Origin: Escherichia phage ZH4
Sequence record: OM355495.1
Length of the DNA: 39,496 bases
Reading direction: 5' to 3' (one strand)
Numbering within the stretch: position 1 is the first letter of the stretch; each line of letters opens with the position of its first letter. Below are positions 1 through 39,496 of this stretch, piece after piece. The notes beneath the pieces were generated by a model that saw only the letters and a list, made by a program, of their open reading frames with translations, ran no database searches and was not told the origin of the DNA. The position numbers and the translations under genes are program-made.

Positions 1-1544
1 ATGCCTTGTGTTTCCGATTCAAACCCTTCAAACGTTATTCCATTGCCACAGTTTGTAGCTATGACATTATCCACAACAATGTCAGCAACATAGCGTTTGA
101 ATCCCATAGCTCCATGAGCACAGTCCCGAAAAACAAGGTTAGACATAGCACAGTTACGACTTCCACCAGCTACACTAGAAGACAGGTAAATGCCCAAGTC
201 TCTTACGTTTTCTACGTATAAACCATTTACCCAACAGTTCTTCGTAGTAGCAAACATCAGCCCTGAGTCTGGGGCATTAACCAGAGACACGTTGGTCAGT
301 GAGCATCTATTACCACCAAAGGTGAGAATATCAGCGACCCCGAACTGGGTGTTTTTTGCTTGGTTCCCGTCAATATGTAAGTCCTTGATGTGTACATCAT
401 CAGCACCCATGTTGTGTACTAGGTAATAAGCCTTAGCGTTATCTATGCAGATATTGTCAGCAAATTTTAGCCAACCACCAGCACCCACAAGGATTGTTTT
501 ATTTTTTATCGATAAGCCTGTGAAAATCCACGGATCTCCATTCTTGTTCTTAGGCGTGATCTTAATCGCACAGTAACCTGGAACAGAACCAGCATAATCA
601 AGAGCAGCCTGCAAAGTCTGTTGATCGTTTTTGCTACCGAACATAAAAGAACGAACATCAACAAAATCGTCAACCTGTAGTTCAAGTTGCCTGCCGTCTG
701 CACGGTCAACAATAACAACACCGTCCCCAGTAGAACCCGTATTAGGAACTACGGCATACTTGTTGTAAATACCTGATGCGGTCTTAGTAGCTACTAACCG
801 TCCTTCTTCTGTGGTATTAGTTCCTAGGTTAGCAAAGGTATCCAACTCTACTGCTATACCACCAATTAAAGATGCCCCACCTGACTCCTTTAATTCTGTT
901 CTCAAGGCAGCGTCACCCACACTAACCCACGCACCTAATCCAATCCCACCGGAAGTTTCAGGAGTTGAACCAGCAGGGACGTTCTTTGGAAGCGTGCCAT
1001 CCCAGCGGTAATAATCACCATCCTCTTCCCATAGCAGTACCTCGTTCCATGTTATAACGTTGAAGCCTTTCTCGAAGGATCGACGGGTAATATAGCCAAT
1101 TAGACCGGATGCCTTGATGCTCTCAGCGATTCGTCGTGCTTCGTCCTCGCTATCCTTAGCGTTGCCAGCAGAGCTGCTAGCAGCATCGGCATATTCCTTC
1201 GCTAAGTCAACCGTTTGGTCTCGACCTTCTTCTGCAATATGGATAGCCTGAAGCTCTGCATTGGTCAGGTCACTAGCTGTCAACACTGAGCCATTCCTGA
1301 AGTCTACCACTAAGTCAGTTCCAGTCTGACGGTGAATACGAACGATGTCGAAACCTGATTGGTCAACCAACATCTCAATCATCGTTGGATTAAGGAAGCG
1401 GTAATCGCTACCAACTTCCAGTACACGGTTCAGGGTAGGGTTAGAGCTATTCACCAGCGTAACAACAACAAACGTTCTGGCTAGGTAGTCGAACTCAATC
1501 CTGTACTGAGTGTTTCCTGAAGGGAATTGTGTAATCGTGGACAT
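1..1544 (-). CDS. Tail fiber / tailspike (T7 gene 17 homolog), N-terminal part; ATG at 1544, ORF runs off the window start and continues at 39369 across the circular junction (whole gene about 751 aa)
   Basis: Own translation of minus strand from ATG at 1544 (RBS AGGAGG upstream) gives [33 protein letters not shown]..., matching the T7 gp17 N-terminal region (FEYLARKFVVVTL). Reading frame is continuous with track ORF 38658..39476 via the 127-bp overlap. Absent from the ORF track only because there is no stop inside the window. Confidence 0.85.
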
Positions 1545-1591: not shown

Positions 1592-1614
1592 GTTTCCTAT
1601 AGTGATAGTTTAGT
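1592..1614 (-). promoter_or_regulatory. Phage RNAP promoter (phi17-like), minus sense CTAAACTATCACTATAGGAAA, predicted +1 near 1597
   Basis: Match to the 11-copy phage promoter family in this window; sits just upstream of the gene 17 start and overlaps the gp16 stop. Confidence 0.8.
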
Positions 1615-4600
1615 CCTTGATGTGGATACCTTGCTCCTCAAACGTTCCCAGTAGCAACTTCTGGGTAATCGGGTCGTTCGGAACCAGTTCACGGAACGTA
1701 TTATACATCCCGGTCATGTAGTCACGCTCGTTGACACGAGTATCGGACTTGAGGTAGCCAGCCAAGTTGTAAGCCGAAGCGCCAACGTTAGCAGCATATC
1801 CGAAAGCTGGAACCTGCTCCAAGAAGTTACCAACAATATTCATCACAGGGTCACTTGTAGCCGCACCATACGCGATGGCACGTTCAGGCTTCTCTGTAGG
1901 CGAACGAGGTAGGATAGACGAACGGAGCAGCTTAGTGTCCTCGTACCCAGCGATACCACCCAGAATGTTAGCTACCCCAAGTGGTCCACCGAGATGTGAA
2001 CTACGTGATAGAGCCGCATATCCAATCATCGTCGGGTCCAGAGCTTGCTTGAGGTAGTCACGGTCTCGACCATCCTGCATAGCGTAGGCCTTGACATGCG
2101 CCTGAGCCATGTAGTAGATGCCAGCAAGACCCATAGAGATCACAGTTGACAGAGCAGCGTCCATCGCTCGGTTGTTCTTCGTGGCGTTATAGAAGGTTCG
2201 CATGGTACGTCCATTGATAGACTTGATGACGAAGTTCTTAAACTGGAGGACAGTCTTAGCGAGAGGACCGTAAGCCTTGGCGTCCATGTTTGACAGCTTA
2301 TGAGGCCGGAGTAACGTTTCGTCAGCGATGGTGTCACCCATACGCCACAAGTCCATAGCCCTTGGGTCCTGACTGAACGCCTTCTTATCCTTGATCGTGT
2401 ACTTCCCGTCTGGACCACGCGTCACTGACTCACGGATTAGGGACTTAATACCCTTCCACTGCTCGTCAGAGATACCAGCGGTCTTCAGCCAGCGGTCATC
2501 GAACTTACGCTTACTGCCAGTCAGACTATGCTCCACGATGTCAGACAGGAAGCCTTGACGCCCAGCATCTAACAGGTAGTTTGTCGTACCGTTGAGGACT
2601 TTAGTGAACGGAGAGCGTACTGCAAGTTCACCAGTGTAATACTTGGCAGAGCCTAAAGCCGTAGCCGTAGGTTTACTCAGGGAGCTGTAAGCTCGGAGGC
2701 GGTCTATAACATCCTGTTTAGACGGACGGATTGAGTCATCCAGTTCCTTACCGAAGATAACATTGTGCAGGTCCTTAATCTCTGAGGCCCCGACCTTCTT
2801 GTTACGGAAGGCTAGGTCACGGAAAATCGGGACTCCATGTAGCAGTGCACGAACGTTACCACGAGCCAGCATACCACCAATCTCCGTTAAGTTCTGAACA
2901 CCCATGTAGGCATTCTTAGCGAAGAACGATAGGTCTGTCATTGTGCGCATAACTGTAGCGAAGGCTGCATCGTCAGCACCATCACGTCGAGCACGACCAG
3001 TGAGAATTTTCAAGGTGTCACGTAAGGTAGATACCTCACCTTTCAACTTGCCGTCATCACCAGCCTTGTTCATCATGGTCTCAACCAAATCCTTCATGTC
3101 CTTCGTTGTCTTGCCTGTACCAGCCATGATAGCAATGTCACCATTAACTCGACGGTTGTAGGCCGGGACAATCTTGTCCATGTCCCACTCACGTAGACTA
3201 TTTACGCTGAAAGCCTTACCATTAGGCAGGATTATTTCCATGTCGTTATCGAACAGGTTGCGAGCCTCAAGGAAGTTATTGTTCTCCAGACCGACCAGAC
3301 CGTTGATGTTTTCTTCCATTACGGATGAACGCTCAAACTGCTCTGTATGGGAGATACCATAAGCCTTATCATTAGCATACTTCTCTACCATATCCATAGT
3401 CACCTCTGGTGCTGCTTGAGATGCGTTACCAGATGTAGTTTCACCAGCAGTAGGGGCCTGATCATCTACAGCAGTCTTCTGCCCTTTGGCAGCTGCCGCA
3501 GCCGCTTCAGCTTCAGTTGTTGCTTTGGTGATTCTGTCTCGGACCTTATCAGCCTGTCCTTTCATGTAGTCGAGACGCTCGGTGTTAATACGGACGTGAG
3601 ACTTCTGGGTCTCAATCATCTGCTTCCGACTCTCAATCTTAACAGGAATGGTCTTGCTCTTAGGCTTAGCAGCTAGCTTTTCTTCCAACTCCTTCAGCTT
3701 AGCTTCATGAGAAGCCAGTCGGTCCTTGGAGTTCTGGAGTTTCTTTTCACGGTCTGCAACTCGCTTCTCAGCGTTGGTAAGTACGTCTTTGAGCTCAGCT
3801 ACCTTATCAATTGCCTGTGTAGCAGCATCGTCCAGTTTCATCTGGTCACGGGCTGTGTTTACAGAAGAACGAGGATTTGGTGCAGTACCCACAGTCTTAC
3901 CTGCTGCTGGTTGAGATGACCGTAACTGCTCTGCTAACATCTCGTCCACTCGCGCCTTGACTTCAGGTCTTGACGCATAGCTTGTCAGCCATGACTTCTT
4001 GATTGCCTCCTGTAATGCCTCTGGGCTTCCAAGCTCCTTGATATAAAGCTGCTTCATCTGAGAACTATAGACTACAGGAACGTAGGTCCCCTTGAATCTA
4101 CTACCCGGAAAGATAGACTGAGCGTCTGTACGGCCAAACATCGCTGGGTTCTCCATCATCTCGCGCTTTGCATCAAACTGGTTCTTCAGCAGGTCATAGA
4201 CTTTCAGTTCCCCCGGAGTAAGTTCAGTCTTCAGGTTTCCGCTACCATCTTCAATCGCCAAAGCTACGCGCTTATAAACATCCTCACGCAGAGCTGAGTT
4301 ATCTCGCCAGAATGCTGTCTGGAAGTATGGGTCCTTGAGCGCCTCAGTAACCGCATCGTCGATGTCGTTGTAGAACCGATGGTCCACAGCACGAAGTCTC
4401 TCGAATACGTCTGACGCAGTGGTCCCGATTTTACCTGAGGCCCCTGACTGCATACCAGTCGGTGAACGCACTAAGTCAGCAGCGACTCCACGAATCTCAG
4501 GGTTCTCAGACCGAAGCAGCTTCAGGCCAATCTCAGTCAGGCCGCCAAGGTTAACACCAGCAGCGGCACGTTCAGGCTCAATCACTTCGTCAAAGACCTG

Positions 4601-5998
4601 ACGTGTCCTAGGATTCAGAGGGTTCTCACCAATCAGGATTGAACCATCTTCGAGTCGTACACTACCCGGCTCGTTCGGAACGTCAGCGAACCTAACTCCT
4701 TGATGACTAAAGGTCTGCTCACCTTCCTGAATAGGGAGACGAGACAGGTCCTGACCGTCAACGTTACGGGCTGTCTCGCGAGCTTCCAGACGTGTAGCTG
4801 GACCAGCGAACTCGTTAGTGTTACGACCTAAGGCTCTGCCTAAGCCATCAGCGATAGCAGTCATACCACCACCGAAGAGAGCACCACCAAGGATAGCTTC
4901 AGCCACATGAGCGTCACCACCAGCCACTGAGGTACGGGCCATCTCAGACACACCAGCCAGTGCTCCAGTTTGAGCAGCCACGGTGAACATCTTGTTTACC
5001 AGCTTACCCCCTTTACCAACCTGTCCAGCGATAGGAACGTAGGTCAGAGGGTCTACACCAGCACCAATCACACCAGCAGCTAACTGGGCACCAGTCCCAG
5101 CCTTGGCCTTCTCTTGGTCCAACTTCTGGTTCTCAAGAGCCAAGTTAATAAGCTCGGTCAGGTTCTGAGGAGACCCGCCAGTAAGGACCCCATAATACTG
5201 AGGCAGAACCCCAGCGTTACGAATCTGGTCCAGCTCCTCGCGAGTCCACTTATGGTTGTTCCATCTGGTAGGGTTAAACACATCGCCAATGACATCCAGT
5301 GAGTCCTCGGTCTGACCAGCGCGGATAGCCACGCCGACCATAGAGTTCTTCACTTCAGCTTCTGTAGCCGAACCGAAACCGAACCATGTAGAGCGGTCCT
5401 CTCGTTCCTGCATGGTATCGCCGGTAGCCTTATAGAACATCTCACCGAACGATTCGTTGGGAGCTTCAGGTGCTTGACCCTCAATATTCAGACCAGCAGC
5501 GGTCGGAAGGTTCTCACCCAGAGCTACTTTAGGTTTAGCCTTGAGTCCTTCCGTGAGTGCGTCAAATACGTTAGCGCTTACTGGTGGAGTCTTTGGGCTA
5601 ATGCCATTGAGTGCTCGTGCGACTCCCTTCTGATAGACTTCAGGGTCGTACCGGGAGCCTGTCTCATGGAAGCTGATAGCTTGAGCCAGAGAAGACAGGG
5701 TGTCAGGGTCCGAAAGGTCGAGACTCTGGGTAGCTGGAATACCAGTTGCAGCCACCACTGAGTCAATATAAGCCTTAGTGTCGTTCTCGTTAGGAGGCGC
5801 CCATCGGTTGATAATCTTCTCGATGGAGTCATAGCCTTGGCGACCGTAACTTAATAAGTTCTTACCCAAGGCCCGCACACCAGACTCTGGGCTATCAAAT
5901 ATTACAAACTCCCCATCATCGCCAATAGCTCCTTCCCATTGGTCCTTAGACTTACGGATATTTCCGGGGTTCGAATTTCTTATACCACGTGTTGCCAT
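1610..5998 (-). CDS. Internal virion protein D (T7 gp16 homolog), 1462 aa, with non-T7 N-terminal domain
   Basis: Track ORF; central and C-terminal regions align with T7 gp16 (e.g. MENPAMFG...SIFPGSRFKGTYVPVVY, NAYMGVQNLTEIGGM). RBS GGAG upstream of ATG. N-terminus (MATRGIRNSNPGNIR...) does not resemble the T7 SLT domain. Confidence 0.9.
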   Translation of the reverse strand: MATRGIRNSNPGNIRKSKDQWEGAIGDDGEFVIFDSPESGVRALGKNLLSYGRQGYDSIEKIINRWAPPNENDTKAYIDSVVAATGIPATQSLDLSDPDTLSSLAQAISFHETGSRYDPEVYQKGVARALNGISPKTPPVSANVFDALTEGLKAKPKVALGENLPTAAGLNIEGQAPEAPNESFGEMFYKATGDTMQEREDRSTWFGFGSATEAEVKNSMVGVAIRAGQTEDSLDVIGDVFNPTRWNNHKWTREELDQIRNAGVLPQYYGVLTGGSPQNLTELINLALENQKLDQEKAKAGTGAQLAAGVIGAGVDPLTYVPIAGQVGKGGKLVNKMFTVAAQTGALAGVSEMARTSVAGGDAHVAEAILGGALFGGGMTAIADGLGRALGRNTNEFAGPATRLEARETARNVDGQDLSRLPIQEGEQTFSHQGVRFADVPNEPGSVRLEDGSILIGENPLNPRTRQVFDEVIEPERAAAGVNLGGLTEIGLKLLRSENPEIRGVAADLVRSPTGMQSGASGKIGTTASDVFERLRAVDHRFYNDIDDAVTEALKDPYFQTAFWRDNSALREDVYKRVALAIEDGSGNLKTELTPGELKVYDLLKNQFDAKREMMENPAMFGRTDAQSIFPGSRFKGTYVPVVYSSQMKQLYIKELGSPEALQEAIKKSWLTSYASRPEVKARVDEMLAEQLRSSQPAAGKTVGTAPNPRSSVNTARDQMKLDDAATQAIDKVAELKDVLTNAEKRVADREKKLQNSKDRLASHEAKLKELEEKLAAKPKSKTIPVKIESRKQMIETQKSHVRINTERLDYMKGQADKVRDRITKATTEAEAAAAAAKGQKTAVDDQAPTAGETTSGNASQAAPEVTMDMVEKYANDKAYGISHTEQFERSSVMEENINGLVGLENNNFLEARNLFDNDMEIILPNGKAFSVNSLREWDMDKIVPAYNRRVNGDIAIMAGTGKTTKDMKDLVETMMNKAGDDGKLKGEVSTLRDTLKILTGRARRDGADDAAFATVMRTMTDLSFFAKNAYMGVQNLTEIGGMLARGNVRALLHGVPIFRDLAFRNKKVGASEIKDLHNVIFGKELDDSIRPSKQDVIDRLRAYSSLSKPTATALGSAKYYTGELAVRSPFTKVLNGTTNYLLDAGRQGFLSDIVEHSLTGSKRKFDDRWLKTAGISDEQWKGIKSLIRESVTRGPDGKYTIKDKKAFSQDPRAMDLWRMGDTIADETLLRPHKLSNMDAKAYGPLAKTVLQFKNFVIKSINGRTMRTFYNATKNNRAMDAALSTVISMGLAGIYYMAQAHVKAYAMQDGRDRDYLKQALDPTMIGYAALSRSSHLGGPLGVANILGGIAGYEDTKLLRSSILPRSPTEKPERAIAYGAATSDPVMNIVGNFLEQVPAFGYAANVGASAYNLAGYLKSDTRVNERDYMTGMYNTFRELVPNDPITQKLLLGTFEEQGIHIKD

Positions 5999-6429
5999 GT
6001 CTTTCTCCTTAAGATATTTCTAATAGAAACCGTACTCACTCCATAGGAACTAGCTAGGAATGAAACCTTTAGGCCGCTAGACCGTATGTTCTTCACATCA
6101 GTCTCTGTCAATTTGGATACTCCTATTGAGCTTCCAGACGCTTGACGACCTCTTTCCACCTTGTCTTTAATGTTGTCAGCCTGAGTTCCAGCCTCAAGAT
6201 GGTCAGGGTTTATGCAGGACGGATTGTCGCACTTATGGCGTACAACATACCCTTCAGGTATAGGACCACTGGCAAGCTCATAAGCTAGTCGATGTGCTCT
6301 ATACTTAACTCTGTTAATCATTATCGTACCATAACCGTCAGAATCTACGGTCCCAGTGAATCGGATACAGCCAGAGCTTTCAGCTACTGACAATTCTGCC
6401 AGTCTCTCACTGGCTGTCCCGTTCTTCAT
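5980..6429 (-). CDS. HNH homing endonuclease (intact), 149 aa
   Basis: HNH motif VVRHKCDNPSCINPDHLEAG plus a C-terminal DNA-binding-like segment KLTETDVKNIR...STVSIRNILRRKTW; RBS GGAG upstream; inserted between gp15 and gp16. Confidence 0.85.
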   Translation of the reverse strand: MKNGTASERLAELSVAESSGCIRFTGTVDSDGYGTIMINRVKYRAHRLAYELASGPIPEGYVVRHKCDNPSCINPDHLEAGTQADNIKDKVERGRQASGSSIGVSKLTETDVKNIRSSGLKVSFLASSYGVSTVSIRNILRRKTWQHVV

Positions 6430-19617: not shown

Positions 19618-19898
19618 TGCTTGAACCCCACGCTGATATTAGAGATGGTGGCACCGTCTTCCGGCAGCTCATCTTTCAGCTTGGACGCCAGCACAGACTT
19701 CATGTGCAGCTCAATGGCTGCTTCTACCCCTTGCTCTACAGCAGTCTCTACCAGCTTACGGGTCAGGCCATCCTGCTTCTCCCCAGCGATATAACCCTTT
19801 GTCATCTCAACCAACTCCTGAGAGTATTCCTCTACATCATCTGCCGTAAAGACAATCTTCAGGTCGAACTTACAGGTCAGGCGTTTAGTAATAGCCAT
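19614..19898 (-). CDS. gp5.5-like protein, 94 aa from ATG at 19898
   Basis: RBS GGAG precedes MAITKRLTCKFDLK...; follows DNA polymerase as T7 5.3/5.5 do; TAATG overlap with DNAP stop. Confidence 0.6.
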   Translation of the reverse strand: MAITKRLTCKFDLKIVFTADDVEEYSQELVEMTKGYIAGEKQDGLTRKLVETAVEQGVEAAIELHMKSVLASKLKDELPEDGATISNISVGFKQ

Positions 19899-22069
19899 TA
19901 ATGACACTCCTTCCACGTTGGTCCAATCTTACCTTCGGTATCAAGGACACATTTAAAGTTATAGAACTCACCCACCTTGCGCATAGCAAGTTGAGCAATC
20001 TTGACGACTTCTTCGGCAATCTCCTGAGTACGACACGCAATCTGCAGCTCATCGTGAACCCAAGCCATGTACGCAAAGTCTCCTTCCCAGCCGTGAACAT
20101 ACCCGGCATCTTCGAGCATACGTTCAGTCTCGACAATCCAGTGCTTACAGACTACCGCACCATCCCCTTGAAGTAAGGCGTTAAGTGCTGAGTGCGGGGA
20201 CCGGATGTGGATACGGCGACCATCAAGTCCACGCAACCAACGGCGTTTCCACTTAACGATATTCTCACCGTCCACCCACTTAGAGTCTGATATTAACGTA
20301 TTACTCACAGCTTCCCTGAGGTCCTTGATGGCTGGTGTACCCTCAATGAATTTCTTCATGAGAGCTGAACCTTCCTTCTTACCACCGCCGACTATCAGTC
20401 CAATCTTAGCGGCCCCTGCACCATACAGGAACGCATAGATGAACGTCTTAGCGTTGTTACGGAAAGCCTCATGGTCGTGGTTAGACTTATCGCGTGGGAC
20501 GTTAGGTGCTAACCCAGCGTTTACTGCGTTGGCCCAGTGGATGTCACCTTCTACCACAGTCTTCGCATAGGCCCCACCATCAAACGGAGCCGCTCGGTTC
20601 CCAAGACAACGAAGCTCAAGACCTGAGGCATCCACACCAACTTGAATCCAAGGGTCTGGCTTACCGTCCTTCTTGTTCCACGCTGCACCAAAAGCACCAC
20701 GGCAAGTCTCACCATATGGAGCACCATTAGCCGGGACCTGAGCCATGTTTGGTGAACTATGGGTCGCACGTCCGGTCACTGCACCGCATGGATTGATTGA
20801 ACCGTGCATACGTCCGTCTGGACCTACAAGTTTCAACCATGCGTTCTTACCTTCAGCCGCCTGACCGATGCGCTTCTGGACTACCAGATACTCACGGACC
20901 AACTCTACGCAAGCCTGAGCCTCTGCGTCTGGTAACTTAACGTGCTCTAACGTCTCGTCATCGACTACAGGTTTACCGGTGTCAGTGAAGTCCACAGGCT
21001 CCCAGCCACGCTCCATCAGAACTTTCGCTAAGTGGTCTCCGCTTCCCGGATTAAACTCGACGTAAGTGATAGGTGTGAACGGTGCTCCATCCATCGTGTC
21101 TCGTGAGTCGAACTCGCAAGGCTCCAGACCTAAGCGTTGAGCTTTGTTCTTCGGCTTCTTGAATACTGACCCGACCTTAGGGTACACGACTCGTGGATAC
21201 TTCGGAAGGTCCTTGCCTGTCCGTGGATGCCTGAAGAACTCCTTTCCTCCCTTCGGTGCATACCAGCTACCGAAAGTCGAACGCAGCTTATCCAGCAGCT
21301 CTGCACGTTTGACGGTGAGTTCACGATATAAGCCTTCGACCATCTCGGTGTTCATCGGATAGCCGTTACGCTCCATCTTCGCACAGGTCCACGCAGCATC
21401 ATGTTCCAGACGCAACGCATAAATCTGGTCGAAAGCGAACTGTTCAGACTGGAAGTAATACTTGTCAGTCAGGAACTTCTTGAACAATGCCAGTGTTACC
21501 ACAACGTCTTGAACGTTATAGTCCAGCATCTCCTGAGACGGGAACAGCCATTCGTCCCCAGCCTTATATTCGATACCTTCAGCCTTGCACTTGGCAATGT
21601 AATCGTGTTTGTACTCACCTTTCATCTCACCGAGACGATAGCCCCAAGCCTCAAGAGATTGTCGTCCCATCATCTGAGGTGGCAGACGACCAGCTTTCAC
21701 CGCGCCCATGTCTGAGAACTTAATGTTTGGATACATCAAGCGGCCCAGCACCAAGGTATCAATCATCTTGTGTTTCGGGAAGTTAAAACGTTTCCCAAAG
21801 TACAGACGCTTCAGCTTGTCTATAGCCGGGACGTCATAGTTGATACCGTTGTGGAATACCAGCATACCATCAGGTGATGCGGCAATCTCTTCCACCTTCT
21901 GCACATACTCTTTGAAGCCACCGACGATACCGACCATCGGAGCTACCCCATACTTAAGGGTCTCATTCGACTCGGCGTTAATCAGGACCCCACAGTGAAA
22001 CTGGGATACTGTATCAAGGAGACCGTTGGTCTCGATGTCAGAACCCCAGATACTCTTAAGGTCAAACAT
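19898..22069 (-). CDS. DNA polymerase (T7 gp5 homolog), about 723 aa from ATG at 22069
   Basis: Strong similarity to T7 DNAP (DIETNGLLD..FHCGV, EAWGYRLGEMKGEYK, YNVQDVVVT, FGSWY.PKGG, NPCGAVTGRATH, GVDASGLELRC, NAKTFIYAFLYGAG, YMAWVHDE). RBS GGAGG is 7 nt before MFDLK; the track start at 22105 is probably too far upstream. Confidence 0.97.
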   Translation of the reverse strand: MFDLKSIWGSDIETNGLLDTVSQFHCGVLINAESNETLKYGVAPMVGIVGGFKEYVQKVEEIAASPDGMLVFHNGINYDVPAIDKLKRLYFGKRFNFPKHKMIDTLVLGRLMYPNIKFSDMGAVKAGRLPPQMMGRQSLEAWGYRLGEMKGEYKHDYIAKCKAEGIEYKAGDEWLFPSQEMLDYNVQDVVVTLALFKKFLTDKYYFQSEQFAFDQIYALRLEHDAAWTCAKMERNGYPMNTEMVEGLYRELTVKRAELLDKLRSTFGSWYAPKGGKEFFRHPRTGKDLPKYPRVVYPKVGSVFKKPKNKAQRLGLEPCEFDSRDTMDGAPFTPITYVEFNPGSGDHLAKVLMERGWEPVDFTDTGKPVVDDETLEHVKLPDAEAQACVELVREYLVVQKRIGQAAEGKNAWLKLVGPDGRMHGSINPCGAVTGRATHSSPNMAQVPANGAPYGETCRGAFGAAWNKKDGKPDPWIQVGVDASGLELRCLGNRAAPFDGGAYAKTVVEGDIHWANAVNAGLAPNVPRDKSNHDHEAFRNNAKTFIYAFLYGAGAAKIGLIVGGGKKEGSALMKKFIEGTPAIKDLREAVSNTLISDSKWVDGENIVKWKRRWLRGLDGRRIHIRSPHSALNALLQGDGAVVCKHWIVETERMLEDAGYVHGWEGDFAYMAWVHDELQIACRTQEIAEEVVKIAQLAMRKVGEFYNFKCVLDTEGKIGPTWKECH

Positions 22070-22089
22070 GGTTAATCCTCCGTTTAGTC

Positions 22090-22130
22090 TAATCATAAAG
22101 GCCACTCGATGTGAATGACCTTGAGTCTAG
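22090..22130 (-). repeat. Conserved 43-bp element copy 1 (plus sense TAATCATAAAGGCCAC...ATGACCTTGAGTCTA); putative RNase III processing hairpin upstream of gene 5
   Basis: One of three near-identical copies (also 29734..29776, 38021..38064). In RNA sense AAGGUCAU can pair with GUGGCCUU around a loop. Intergenic. Confidence 0.5.
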
Positions 22131-33496: not shown

Positions 33497-33646
33497 TCAC
33501 TCAGTGTGCGAACTGTCGTACATGCTATTGCGGACCTCATAGACCACTTTCAAGAGACGCATAGCCGCATCGTGGTTTAACTGCCCAGTCTTGACCATAA
33601 TCCGGGCGTAGGTGACGTGGTGCTGGCAGAGACCATAAGTTACCAT
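33497..33646 (-). CDS. Small ORF, 49 aa, translationally coupled to Ocr (TAATG overlap)
   Basis: Own translation [49 protein letters not shown]; no RBS evaluated; low confidence. Confidence 0.3.
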   Translation of the reverse strand: MVTYGLCQHHVTYARIMVKTGQLNHDAAMRLLKVVYEVRNSMYDSSHTE

Positions 33647-34152
33647 TACTCGCAGTCCTCGTCAGCCGCAGGGTCGAACACTACGTTATCGTCGATGTCT
33701 TCGACTTTCAGGTGGCGACCTATCACATAGTGATCCTTGGCACATGCAGTAGCGACCTCAAGAGACACAGCTTGCTCAATGAGTACACCTGTCTTAGCGT
33801 CGACTACCCAATACTCATCCTCCTCGTCGCTCTCTTCAGCCTCAAACCATACCACATCCGAGCTATTAGACACGTCGTTATAAAGCGCCTCATAGATGCG
33901 AGCTTGCAGTATACGCGTTACGTCCTTGGTCTCAGGCATCAGCCCAGAGTCCTCAAACTCATGGTCTATACCATCAGCAGCCATCACCGTAAAAATCTCG
34001 TGGTAATAGTGCGGAACCTGACCGTCTACGACTTCATGCAGCGCATCGTGGTAGTCATCGCTTTCAGCTATTTCGTCGTACTGAATACGCTCGTTAAATG
34101 CTTTAACGGTTGCGGCCAGCAGCTCATAGTATGCGTTAGCGTTACGTTCCAT
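33646..34152 (-). CDS. ocr: Ocr-like DNA-mimic anti-restriction protein (T7 gp0.3 homolog) with a C-terminal extension, 168 aa
   Basis: [66 protein letters not shown] matches T7 Ocr ([66 protein letters not shown]). First gene after the host promoters. About 50 extra C-terminal residues beyond the acidic tail. Confidence 0.9.
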
Positions 34153-34345
34153 AGTTATATCCTCTCAAAGTTGTTTGTGTATGTTAGTGACTATCAGTCA
34201 GGGCCTTCAGATGTAGACTCAAAGACCCTGTAGTTAGTCGCTATCGGCGCACATTAAGAGTTTATCCAGATTATTAAAGAGCATTCGCGTTGGCTGTCGT
34301 CGCCGTGCTATCCCGTTTCAGTGTTGGGACTCACCGTTGTTTCGA

Positions 34346-34382
34346 TGTGGTACAGCTTACAGCTTTTAAAGGAGGCTGTCAA
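34346..34382 (-). promoter_or_regulatory. Host sigma70-type early promoter (T7 A3-like): -35 TTGACA, 17-nt spacer, -10 TAAGCT, then GTACCACATCGAAACAACGGTGAGTC
   Basis: Minus sense TTGACAgcctcctttaaaagctgTAAGCTgtaccacatcgaaacaacggtgagtccc; the downstream segment closely resembles the T7 A3 initial transcribed region (GTACCACATGAAACGACAGTGAGTCA). Confidence 0.65.
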
Positions 34383-34494
34383 CCTGTTATTCTTTTATGC
34401 GATGAGTGACCGAATTCGACTCATGGCTAGTGCCTTATCCTTGGCTGGTCTCGGGCAGGTTTCTCGGTTCCTATCCCTACGCCATCTTGCTACG

Positions 34495-34530
34495 TGGTAC
34501 ATATTACTTTAAGTCGGTACATCTTGTCAA
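34495..34530 (-). promoter_or_regulatory. Host sigma70-type early promoter: -35 TTGACA, 18-nt spacer, -10 TAATAT, followed by GTACCAC
   Basis: Minus sense TTGACAagatgtaccgacttaaagTAATATgtaccacg, about 350 nt upstream of the Ocr gene; near-consensus hexamers. Confidence 0.7.
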
Positions 34531-34779
34531 CTACTTTCTGTCATCTGCCTGTTTTTCGTATGACTTATCAGGCTGTCTACTTGACCGGGATGACCCGGCG
34601 TCTTCACTATCCGGTTGTTGCCGTGTCGTGTTGACGGAAGCTATTAAGCCACAATCTAGGACTGTAGTCAATAGTTAATTTGAAATAATATTGATTAAGC
34701 TATCGTCGGCCCATGGTGACTAAGATGATATAGTCTTTGACTAACATGTCTTTGACCTTAAGTCTATATCTTTATGTCT

Positions 34780-35270
34780 ATTAACTGTAGGTCTCTGACT
34801 GTAGGTAATGGCTTTACCGACGGTCTGTGACTGTAGGTTGTTGGACTGTAGGTTGTTGGACTTATGGTTATACAGATAAAGACTCGGAGACAGACCAATA
34901 GTCCCAACCTATCGTCTCCACCTCCACCGATAGTCATGACCTATCGTTGACAAAAGGTATTGACAGCCGGTCCAACCTTATGATATACTGAAGGTAGGGC
35001 CACCCTTGGTCTGGACTGAAAGAGGGCCTGCGGGGGAGACTTGAGGTTCTTGAACTATGAGATGTGGTCTCAAACTTTTGGTCCAAAACTCATCGTCACT
35101 ACTGCAGTCCACAGCCACTGTAGGTCAAGGACCGTAGGTCAGGCGACACTAGGATAGACCAATAAGTAGGATGACCCTAAGTGAGCTTCTATTAAGGTGT
35201 TACCTAAAGTCCTTGACTACAGTAGCTAAGGTCAGTAGAGTAGCGTCAGCTATGAACTGACCTTAGGTCT
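34780..35270. repeat. Repeat-rich non-coding region containing the predicted physical genome ends and collapsed terminal repeat (ACCTACAG / GACCTTAGGTC-type short repeats)
   Basis: No credible ORFs. Multiple CTGTAGGT/CCGTAGGT copies and GACCTTAAGTC-like palindromes. Lies between gene 19.5 (right end) and the early promoters (left end), analogous to the T7 terminal-repeat-proximal CCTAAAG arrays. Confidence 0.5.
34947..34990 (+). promoter_or_regulatory. Sigma70-like promoter on the opposite (plus) strand: tandem TTGACA boxes, 18-nt spacer, -10 TATACT
   Basis: Plus sense cgTTGACAaaaggtatTGACAgccggtccaaccttatgaTATACTg, inside the terminal region and pointing away from the early genes. No downstream ORF. 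Confidence 0.4.
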
Positions 35271-35299
35271 TCCGCTCATGAATCGTTACCATGATTGCG

Positions 35300-35458
35300 T
35301 TAATTACACTGAGACACCAGAGAACATACGAGAGTCTCGACCCACCCGACCCACTGACTTCCAGCAGTAACGCCAGCAGTAAGTAGAACAGCAGCAAGAA
35401 ACCTGTATGTAGCTCGATTGGTCGCCAGAGCTTTAAGTACAGCTTTGGTCTTTGCCAT
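35300..35458 (-). CDS. gp19.5-like small protein, 52 aa
   Basis: Own translation MAKTKAVLKALATNRATYRFLAAVLLTAGVTAGSQWVGWVETLVCSLVSQCN; the TYRFL.. hydrophobic core resembles what I recall of T7 gp19.5; lies downstream of the right-end promoter as in T7. Below track cutoff. Confidence 0.45.
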   Translation of the reverse strand: MAKTKAVLKALATNRATYRFLAAVLLTAGVTAGSQWVGWVETLVCSLVSQCN

Positions 35459-35756: not shown

Positions 35757-37520
35757 CTAGTGGAACGTAACGTAGGACCCTAGTCCCAGCTCGTCGTCTG
35801 TATCGTGAGTTACCCTGACCCCATTGTCCCAGAACTCAGTGTGTATTGACTCGAAGCCTTTCCGTGGGTTCTCCATCTGTTCCTCAAGCCACTCCTCAGT
35901 GACTTCACGTTCTCCTTTGTTGGCATCCTTAGCCATGGACTCAACGAAGAACTGTACACCGATAGCCAGCGCATCAAGTCGGTCATCATGTGCCAAGGCT
36001 CCACGTTCACGAGATATACGTGTCATCTGGTAGAAGAGAGAGTAGATAGGGTTACGAACACCATCCTTATCAGCGGCTGACTGGTAGTCTTGGACGATAG
36101 CAGCAGCGTTAACGATAAGTCTGTGAGACCCCATGATAGGCTCCAGAACGTCACAGATGCGGAGTTCTTTCTGACCCTTACTCTTCACTTCAGTTACAGC
36201 AGCAGGATGGATACGGGCCGCTACAGGCTTGAATAACTCAAGGTACATACCATCACCGAAGTTACCCTCAATGACGTATTCGTTGACCTTCCACTTACGA
36301 CCAATCTTAGCCAAGGCTTCCAGCGTAGAGTCTTCATAACCACCACGCATGCCACCAACTTCCATAGCGAAGATGTAGCCGTTGAGTTGATACAGTACCG
36401 CATAACCAGTTTCATCCTTACCACGACCACTAGGGTCAATGACCAGAATCTTCTGGGTGTATGAGCTGAACGCAGAACCTACAGTCTGATACGTGTGGTA
36501 CGAGTCACCCATGAGTCCAACGTTAGGAACGTCCTCACGCTTGTTCTGAGGGTTCGGCAACCATTGGTAGACCATTGGACTGGACGCTGGGTCCAAGTCT
36601 GCTACGATAAGGTCACGGAGCTTCAGAGGGTACTTCTCTGCATCACTCAGGTTCGGGTTAAGCATGAACTGTAGAGCGAAGCCAGCTTTACCGTAAGATA
36701 ACTCACGTTCCTTAAGGTCCGTATCATCGAAGCGTACTTCATCAGTCGGACGCCAGTAGAAGGACTCAGGGTCCTCTTCCAGCTCTGCTTGAAGCATAGG
36801 AGCCAGACGGTCGCCGTAAGACTGCCAGTCCTTCCTGTCGCGTGGATAACGAGCCGGCCAGATAGTAGTGGTATACCCACGACCTTCAAGCTCACGATAC
36901 AGGGTCATCTCGTTCTGAGGAGTACCCAGATAGATTATTGTACCTCCAGGCTTAAGGATAGCGTCGAACTCTTTCACAAGCTCTGACAGACGGTCTCGCG
37001 CAGCCTGAGTAGCAGAGTTGTTAGGAACCTCCACGTCATCGGCAATCAGGATGTCAGCACGACTACCAGTCAACTGACCAGTGATACCAACGGACTTAAC
37101 AGAAGGTGAGTGGTCTGGCTTGGCTGGCCCAACGTCGAAGCTAATAACCGCATCTCGCTGTCCCTGCTTAGGTTTGAGTTCCTGAAGCTGAGGCATTAGG
37201 TCGATGATTCGCTTGATGAAGATGGAGTTAGCATCAGCTCGTTCCTTTGAGGCCGACACAATCATGAACTTCAAGTCTGGGTTGTTCCATAGTTTCCAGA
37301 CCACGAAGGCACACGTAATGAAGGACTTCCCGATACCACGGAACGCCTGTAGGATGAAACGCCTGTTGTCCCCAGCGGAGAGCTTACGAGCCATATCTAT
37401 CTGGCATCTAGTCGGGACTGGTAGTGACAGAGCTTTCCACAGGACGAACAGGAAGAACACGAAGTCTGCCTTCATACGGGCAGTCATTAGCGCCTGACGC
37501 GCCACTAAGTCTTTACTCAA
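35757..37520 (-). CDS. Terminase large subunit / DNA maturase B (T7 gp19 homolog), 587 aa
   Basis: Near-identical blocks with T7 gp19 ([167 protein letters not shown]). Confidence 0.98.
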
Positions 37521-38657: not shown

Positions 38658-39496
38658 TTAATTTGATATTTGTTTCCAGTCAGAACTAGTCAACCCGTGT
38701 GACTTCCACCATGAGTTAGCGCTGTCACTCCATACTTCTTGCCCTATAAAGCGAGGAATTACTGTAGCTACAGGAGTAGGGCCGGATACAACTTGATACC
38801 CATACTTAGCTGGTCCTATAGCATTGTTCAAGATAAAATCTTTAGTTATTCCTCTTGCGCCATTAAACCACTCTAGATCCGTACCGCTAATACCGCTAAT
38901 AAACTCAGGTGAAAACTTAGTGAAACTGCAGCCAGCGTTCACTCGTGCCCCGTTGTAAGCGCTATATCCACTAGCCTGCGTGTTGCTCCAGCGACCACCA
39001 ACCACACTACCGTTGCTGCAATTTAAGAAGTACGCAGCATATCTAGCGAAACCTTCCAGGTTAACGTTTACAAGCTCAAATCCTGATGCACCATTGCACT
39101 GGATGCCATCATTGTTCGGTACACCACTTGTTGCTATTTGTGGGTTAGAGGCATACCCAGTTAAATTTGCACCATTAATAAAAATGCCGGTATTGGTATT
39201 CGCACCAAAGTATATACCAACTCCAGAGCAGTTCTGAACACTCAGGTTATTGATACGAATACCACTGGCATAGTTGAAACTGATAGCTCGTTCAGCCGCA
39301 CGCACACTCCTGTACCCAAAACCAATATCACGAAGGCGTATGTTACTCATAGTGATGTTAGCTGGGTTCATGCCTTGTGTTTCCGATTCAAACCCTTCAA
39401 ACGTTATTCCATTGCCACAGTTTGTAGCTATGACATTATCCACAACAATGTCAGCAACATAGCGTTTGAATCCCATAGCTCCATGAGCACAGTCCC
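38658..39496 (-). CDS. Tail fiber / tailspike (gene 17), C-terminal part with right-handed beta-helix (pectate-lyase-like) domain; continues upstream across the window junction (39370..39496 duplicates 1..127)
   Basis: Track ORF 38658..39476 is in frame with the minus-strand ORF from 1544. Repeated beta-helix-like rungs ([48 protein letters not shown]) typical of phage tailspike depolymerases. Confidence 0.85.
   Translation of the reverse strand, partial: DCAHGAMGFKRYVADIVVDNVIATNCGNGITFEGFESETQGMNPANITMSNIRLRDIGFGYRSVRAAERAISFNYASGIRINNLSVQNCSGVGIYFGANTNTGIFINGANLTGYASNPQIATSGVPNNDGIQCNGASGFELVNVNLEGFARYAAYFLNCSNGSVVGGRWSNTQASGYSAYNGARVNAGCSFTKFSPEFISGISGTDLEWFNGARGITKDFILNNAIGPAKYGYQVVSGPTPVATVIPRFIGQEVWSDSANSWWKSHGLTSSDWKQISN
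39370..39496. repeat. 127-bp exact duplicate of window positions 1..127 (circular-assembly overlap, lies inside gene 17)
   Basis: Direct comparison of the window ends; ORF-track coordinates confirm an offset of 39,369. Confidence 0.9.

Follow-up and report, generated by a model that had tools for sequence, protein, structure and literature searches.

The 127-nucleotide end overlap of a Kayfunavirus genome sequence is almost certainly an assembler artefact, with the direct terminal repeat predicted elsewhere

Introduction

The genome sequence of Escherichia phage ZH4 (record OM355495.1), which was analysed at its full length of 39,496 nucleotides and is called the window below, begins and ends with the same 127 nucleotides, and these lie within the coding sequence of a tail gene. 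Are these identical ends the direct terminal repeat of a T7-like phage, or are they a product of the software that assembled the genome? And in the latter case, where are the ends of the DNA that the phage actually packages? An earlier inspection of the letters themselves (the sequence-only reading) had opted for an artefact. The analysis reported here leads to the same answer and adds a position for the ends: we consider it very probable that the overlap is an assembler k-mer artefact (k = 127) on a complete, non-redundant K1F-like genome, in which the real repeat is found at 35062..~34878. The assembler and the value of k are inferred from the length of the overlap alone, and the exact boundaries of the repeat from homology.

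Results and discussion

An exact overlap between the ends of the window

Direct comparison of window positions 1..127 with 39370..39496 shows identity at 127 of 127 bases, the chance of which is negligible. When exact end overlaps of 100-399 nt were scanned, only the length of 127 fitted, and there is no longer exact overlap. The identity of the two segments asserted in the sequence-only reading is thus borne out base for base, and a self-repeat scan of the whole window agrees: the end pair (family D2, spacing 39369) is the sole long repeat, all remaining repeat families being at most 51 nt long and consisting mostly of phage promoters. The two copies are as follows.

1..127, no strand assigned: overlap copy 1; tailspike residues ~473-515 are encoded here on the minus strand
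39370..39496, no strand assigned: overlap copy 2, redundant; its length equals the SPAdes maximum k, and trimming it leaves a 39,369-bp unit

Gene 17 is continuous across the junction

Once one copy of the overlap is removed, gene 17 can be followed on the minus strand from an ATG at 1544, which is preceded by AAAGGAGG, down to window position 1 and onwards from 39369 to a stop codon at 38658-38660, for a total of 751 aa, with the junction splitting codon M515 between AT and G. The window therefore carries this gene in two parts.

1..1544, minus strand: 5' part of gene 17 (tailspike), codons 1-514 and two bases of codon 515
38658..39369, minus strand: 3' part of gene 17, from the third base of codon 515 to the stop codon

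In Pfam, the product matches Phage_T7_tail (PF03906, the T7 gp17 N-terminal adaptor) over aa 10-120, Tail_spike_N over 155-211 and Beta_helix, a right-handed beta-helix, over 387-507. The match to K1F gp17, at 92% identity, is limited to residues 1-226. Further downstream, aa 217-751 are 80% identical to aa 430-964 of the MK13_00101 tailspike of Shigella phage MK-13, in an alignment that contains just two single-residue gaps, both distant from the junction; over residues 456-575, which comprise the repeated stretch (~aa 473-515) as well as the junction, there are no gaps at all. At the DNA level, the match to phage ChubbyThor is a single piece that spans the junction. Given the ungapped alignment with MK-13 and the unbroken match to ChubbyThor, the circle was closed correctly, and the comparison with these homologues shows that nothing was lost in the closed circle and nothing was added except the 127 nt. 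The continuity of the tail-fiber frame across the junction, as previously proposed, accordingly holds: the 751-aa ORF is restored, the MK-13 homologue is ungapped at this point, and the coordinates given earlier for the overlap, the ATG (1544) and the stop codon (38658..38660) are all right. The position of the overlap is arbitrary relative to the genes, and it is the closure of the circle that restores a continuous gene 17.

False circularisation via a repeat internal to gene 17 was also considered and was rejected, given the ungapped MK-13 alignment across the junction and the fact that the window has no long repeat besides the end pair.

The window as a complete K1F-like genome in reverse

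What genome, then, is closed at this junction? A megablast search against 50,697 phage records showed 92-95% identity over ~90% of the first 25 kb of the window to members of Kayfunavirus, such as PH1061, ST31 and SD6, with all Kayfunavirus matches of this part in reverse orientation; the rest of the window likewise matches Kayfunavirus, over ~80% of the remainder. For comparison at the protein level, the 39,369-bp unit was reverse-complemented and restarted at window position 35062, and tblastn on this rotated unit recovered K1F proteins in the K1F order (39 of 41), from gene 0.3 (ocr) to a small ORF after gene 19. The minus strand carries all genes of the window, in an arrangement colinear with that of K1F between genes 0.3 and 19.5, and identities to the K1F proteins include 98.8% (single-subunit RNA polymerase), 98.5% (portal) and 98.3% (major capsid protein). 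The phage promoter AACTATCACTATAGGRA has 11 matches, where 0.02 would be expected by chance, and all of them are on the minus strand. Scans of the window for tRNA genes and for Rfam families returned no tRNA genes and no matches, respectively. The genes most relevant to packaging and to the ends of the genome are the following.

33646..34152, minus strand: gene 0.3, which encodes the ocr DNA mimic and comes first after the left end; Pfam ocr E = 1.2e-31, 84% identity to K1F gp0.3
35300..35458, minus strand: 52-aa ORF at the gene 19.5 position, the last gene before the right end; from reading of the sequence
35760..37487, minus strand: gene 19, terminase large subunit; 99.3% identity to K1F gp19 over 575 aa
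38071..38331, minus strand: gene 18, terminase small subunit; 100% identity to K1F gp18

An ORF of the same 159-nt size as the 52-aa ORF sits at the gene 19.5 position in SH3 and ST31.

Taken together, the ~94% nucleotide identity to Kayfunavirus, the colinearity with K1F and the minus-strand location of the promoters identify the window, as judged by homology, as a complete Kayfunavirus genome (K1F-like, Studiervirinae, T7 family) that is reversed in the record and opened at an arbitrary point inside gene 17. The earlier recognition of a whole T7-like genome is hence upheld by the nucleotide identity and by the ordered set of K1F proteins. The best matches of the first 25 kb have ~94-95% identity over ~92-94% of that length, so that, under the usual 95% rule, the phage probably represents a separate, undescribed Kayfunavirus species; among the phage records compared with the whole genome (INPHARED, August 2025), none exceeds ~95% identity. 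Kayfunavirus is a well-sampled genus, and the genome is unremarkable within it.

Several genes merit separate mention. An ORF for an HNH homing endonuclease (149 aa, 5980..6429, minus strand; Pfam HNH_3 E = 1.8e-16) is located between genes 15 and 16; it is absent from K1F and present at the same place in one related metagenomic contig. The DNA polymerase gene (19898..22105, minus strand) is uninterrupted, whereas the K1F record annotates gene 5 as two pieces, joined across an inserted HNH endonuclease. The internal virion protein gp16, which contains a transglycosylase domain (1610..5998, minus strand), consists of 1462 aa, as in ST31, compared to 1295 aa in K1F.

The predicted biological terminal repeat and the likely true ends

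So where are the ends of the packaged DNA likely to be? In the linear K1F record, the first and last 178 bp are an exact repeat, and when both ends were compared to the window by BLAST, left-end positions 1-604 aligned from window 35062 downward and the last 387 bp of the right end aligned at 35272..34880, the two matches overlapping only over the repeat. The ends of SH3, which were mapped experimentally by run-off sequencing from phage DNA (PMC4925675), provide a second point of reference: the annotated SH3 repeat of 184 bp aligns to the same single window copy as the 178-bp K1F repeat. The SH3 study itself gives a repeat length of 183 bp for SH3 and cites 179 bp for K1F (PMC4925675). In an alignment of both ends of K1F, SH3 and IMEP24, the repeats all begin at one column, which corresponds to window 35062 and reads TCTCACAG in these three phages and TCTCATAG here, and all the right-end sequences are almost the same over the 38 bases that precede the repeat. 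The K1F record puts the inner boundary at window 34879, IMEP24 at 34878 and SH3 at 34874; window 34878 is followed by ATCTGT, as is the T7 repeat. The region can be divided as follows.

35063..35299, minus strand: right-end unique non-coding flank; 90.6% identity to the K1F right end, with the TTTTGGACCAAAA palindrome and ACCTACGGT / ACCTACAGT repeats
34878..35062, minus strand: predicted direct terminal repeat, one collapsed copy; from homology to the K1F, SH3 and IMEP24 ends and T7 boundary motifs
34153..34877, minus strand: left-end unique non-coding flank; K1F left-end positions 1-604 and beyond align here

The window thus presents right-end unique sequence, one copy of the repeat and left-end unique sequence in succession. 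Judged by homology to the ends of relatives, such an order is that expected at a concatemer junction, or where an assembler has merged both copies of the repeat. Our best estimate places the repeat at 35062..34878 on the minus strand, with a length of 185 bp and an uncertainty of ~5 bp at the inner end; the left end of the genome is predicted at 35062, and a duplication of the repeat at the virion ends is predicted from the single copy together with both unique flanks.

These assignments refine the sequence-only reading. The real ends had been expected in the non-coding region 34780..35270, and the repeat mapped by homology does lie inside that interval, although the non-coding region itself is wider and extends over 35299..34153, from after the 52-aa ORF (35458..35300) to before ocr. 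The proposed unit of about 39,369 bp is correct for the non-redundant concatemer unit, but the mature virion DNA would be ~185 bp longer, given that the true repeat of this length appears collapsed to one copy in the assembly; it should measure ~39,369 + 185 = 39,554 bp, a length consistent with those of K1F (39,704 bp) and SH3 (39,444 bp). Finally, the description 'circularly permuted' is apt for the record but not for the phage, as T7-like phages have fixed ends.

The flanks of the predicted repeat contain some further sequence elements. In the left flank, CCTACAGT occurs four times (34852..34784), and sites resembling host-type early promoters precede gene 0.3. The whole genome contains nine CCTACAGT octamers, of which five are grouped around the predicted repeat, within ~300 bp to either side (34784..34852 and 35117..35124, minus strand). 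A perfect palindrome, TTTTGGACCAAAA (35076..35088, minus strand), precedes the predicted right-end repeat by 14 bp and is identical in the right ends of K1F, SH3 and IMEP24; speculatively, it may have a role in concatemer processing. Inside the predicted repeat there is a promoter-like site on the plus strand (34960..34989), with TTGACA, a spacing of 18 nt, TATACT and an upstream TG (11 of 12 consensus matches), that is directed leftward, away from the genes. By consensus match only, this site recalls A0, the leftward promoter that T7 annotation places close to the left end; the K1F version is weaker, with TTGACC and TAGACT.

Origin of the 127-nucleotide overlap

The largest k-mer of SPAdes is 127, and other common assemblers have different default values of k. 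A published workflow for phage genomes describes artificial overlaps of 127 bp at the ends of SPAdes contigs (PMC5923482), and in another phage announcement the same 127 bp were trimmed from a SPAdes contig (PMC8104045). A simple chain of events would produce such an overlap. The mature DNA would be linear, with a direct terminal repeat of ~180 bp, both copies of which a short-read de Bruijn assembly would merge, as is expected when the repeat is longer than k (~185 bp vs 127). The collapsed repeat would then join the right end to the left end, turning the graph into a cycle, and when the cycle is printed as a linear contig, its last k bases would repeat the first k, with k = 127. The terminase gp18/gp19 would cut concatemers not in gene 17 but at the real repeat, 35062..~34878.

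Thus, the 127-nt overlap is almost certainly software output devoid of biological meaning. A biological repeat is recognised by a conserved packaging site and by homology to the repeats of relatives, neither of which is found in the overlap, a piece of gene 17 coding sequence. The verdict of the sequence-only reading that this is an artefact and not a biological repeat is, accordingly, supported on each count: the overlap lies inside gene 17, MK-13 is ungapped across it, and the homologue of the K1F and SH3 repeats is located elsewhere in a single copy.

Three other explanations deserve attention. The one that fares best, although it is improbable, is that the overlap is an artefact of a different source than SPAdes with k = 127, such as another assembler, a circularisation tool or a database convention. 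The sequence itself names no software, and other tools leave end overlaps too. An exact 47-nt pattern from the tailspike gene matched nothing in viral, metagenome and genome collections, the RNA polymerase and gp16 had no identical entries on record, and the exact capsid protein led only to related contigs of 17-41 kb, one of which has a name with the prefix 'k141_'. On the other hand, the maximum k of SPAdes is precisely 127, and overlaps of 127 bp are documented for this assembler (PMC5923482). Another tool in its place would leave the conclusion unchanged.

Headful packaging, under which the virion DNA would be circularly permuted in the biological sense and devoid of fixed ends, appears highly unlikely. 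Permuted genomes likewise assemble as circles with a k-mer overlap, and the report on phage U136B took its 127-bp repeats that way. Yet, in close relatives the ends are fixed and carry short terminal repeats, as determined for SH3 by run-off sequencing (PMC4925675) and as recorded for K1F in the exact 178-bp repeat, and this phage shares conserved packaging genes and a conserved repeat region with them, the terminase large subunit being 99.3% identical to K1F gp19.

Least credible of all, and to be given hardly any weight, is a true direct terminal repeat of 127 nt with a packaging site inside gene 17, for which exact direct repeats at both ends have the right look, but which would have to reside inside the coding sequence of a beta-helix domain uninterrupted in homologues, would have to be cut by terminases close to those of K1F (99.3% for the large subunit, 100% for the small one) despite an intact homologue of the K1F/SH3 repeat, with the conserved TCTCA(C/T)AG end, between genes 19.5 and 0.3, and would leave no virion DNA with an intact tailspike gene, neither end holding the whole ORF.

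A chimeric tailspike

The product of gene 17 is chimeric, with residues 1 to ~215 corresponding to the Kayfunavirus gp17 anchor plus Tail_spike_N and residues 217-751 forming a beta-helix module. Two Agtrevirus phages that infect Shigella boydii type 1, MK-13 and ChubbyThor, have tailspikes 80% identical to this module, and its identity is 85% with a metagenomic protein and ~67% with tailspikes of E. coli P22-type prophages, which have a P22-type head-binding domain. IMG/VR, when searched for T7-like backbones with this tailspike, yielded none; what matched was only the N-terminal anchor (aa 1 to ~230). A protein of this composition is a case of the familiar exchange, or shuffling, of receptor-binding modules, and from the module's relatives the host likely carries the corresponding O-antigen.

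The chances appear about even for the combined proposition that this phage is a new Kayfunavirus species and that its tailspike joins a K1F-type gp17 anchor to a beta-helix module whose nearest counterparts in the phage records searched are those of Agtrevirus phages of Shigella boydii type 1. If true, this would suggest that podovirus and Ackermannviridae lineages have recently exchanged a receptor module, and that the host has that O-antigen.

Consequences for the record

The overlap is a documented artefact, not a biological feature, and nothing biologically new is attached to it, so the value of recognising it is practical and touches no open biological question. Left untrimmed, the overlap inflates the genome length and splits gene 17 into two partial calls, and automated tools may label the 127 nt as a terminal repeat. 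For the record, it is best to cut the length to 39,369 bp, take the reverse complement and set the start at window position 35062, with the second copy of the ~185-bp repeat to be added only once the ends are confirmed.

Comparison with known systems

The end overlap is indistinguishable in sequence from the 127-bp overlaps left by SPAdes: it has the same exactness, the same length of 127 and a position that is arbitrary with respect to genes, and trimming restores both the circle and the ORF. The genome itself has the gene order of K1F (NC_007456) and other Kayfunavirus members, from 0.3 to 19.5, with a homologous terminal-repeat region; it differs from K1F in the C-terminal domain of gp17, which is an endosialidase in K1F and a beta-helix tailspike here. 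Compared to T7, whose repeat begins with TCTCACAG as do those of K1F, SH3 and IMEP24, the predicted repeat shares the start, TCTCA(C/T)AG, the ATCTGT that follows the repeat and the location between gene 19.5 and the early promoters, and in both phages short oligonucleotide repeats flank the terminal repeat, CCTAAAG in T7 and CCTACAGT here. The T7 repeat differs in that it is 160 bp long, whereas the one predicted here spans ~185 bp and is represented by one copy in the window, since the assembly would have collapsed two. Lastly, the C-terminal 535 aa of the tailspike resemble those of MK13_00101 from Shigella phage MK-13 (Agtrevirus, Ackermannviridae) at 80% identity, and the two proteins differ at the N-terminal anchor, which is an Ackermannviridae tailspike N-terminus in MK-13 and a T7 gp17-type adaptor here.
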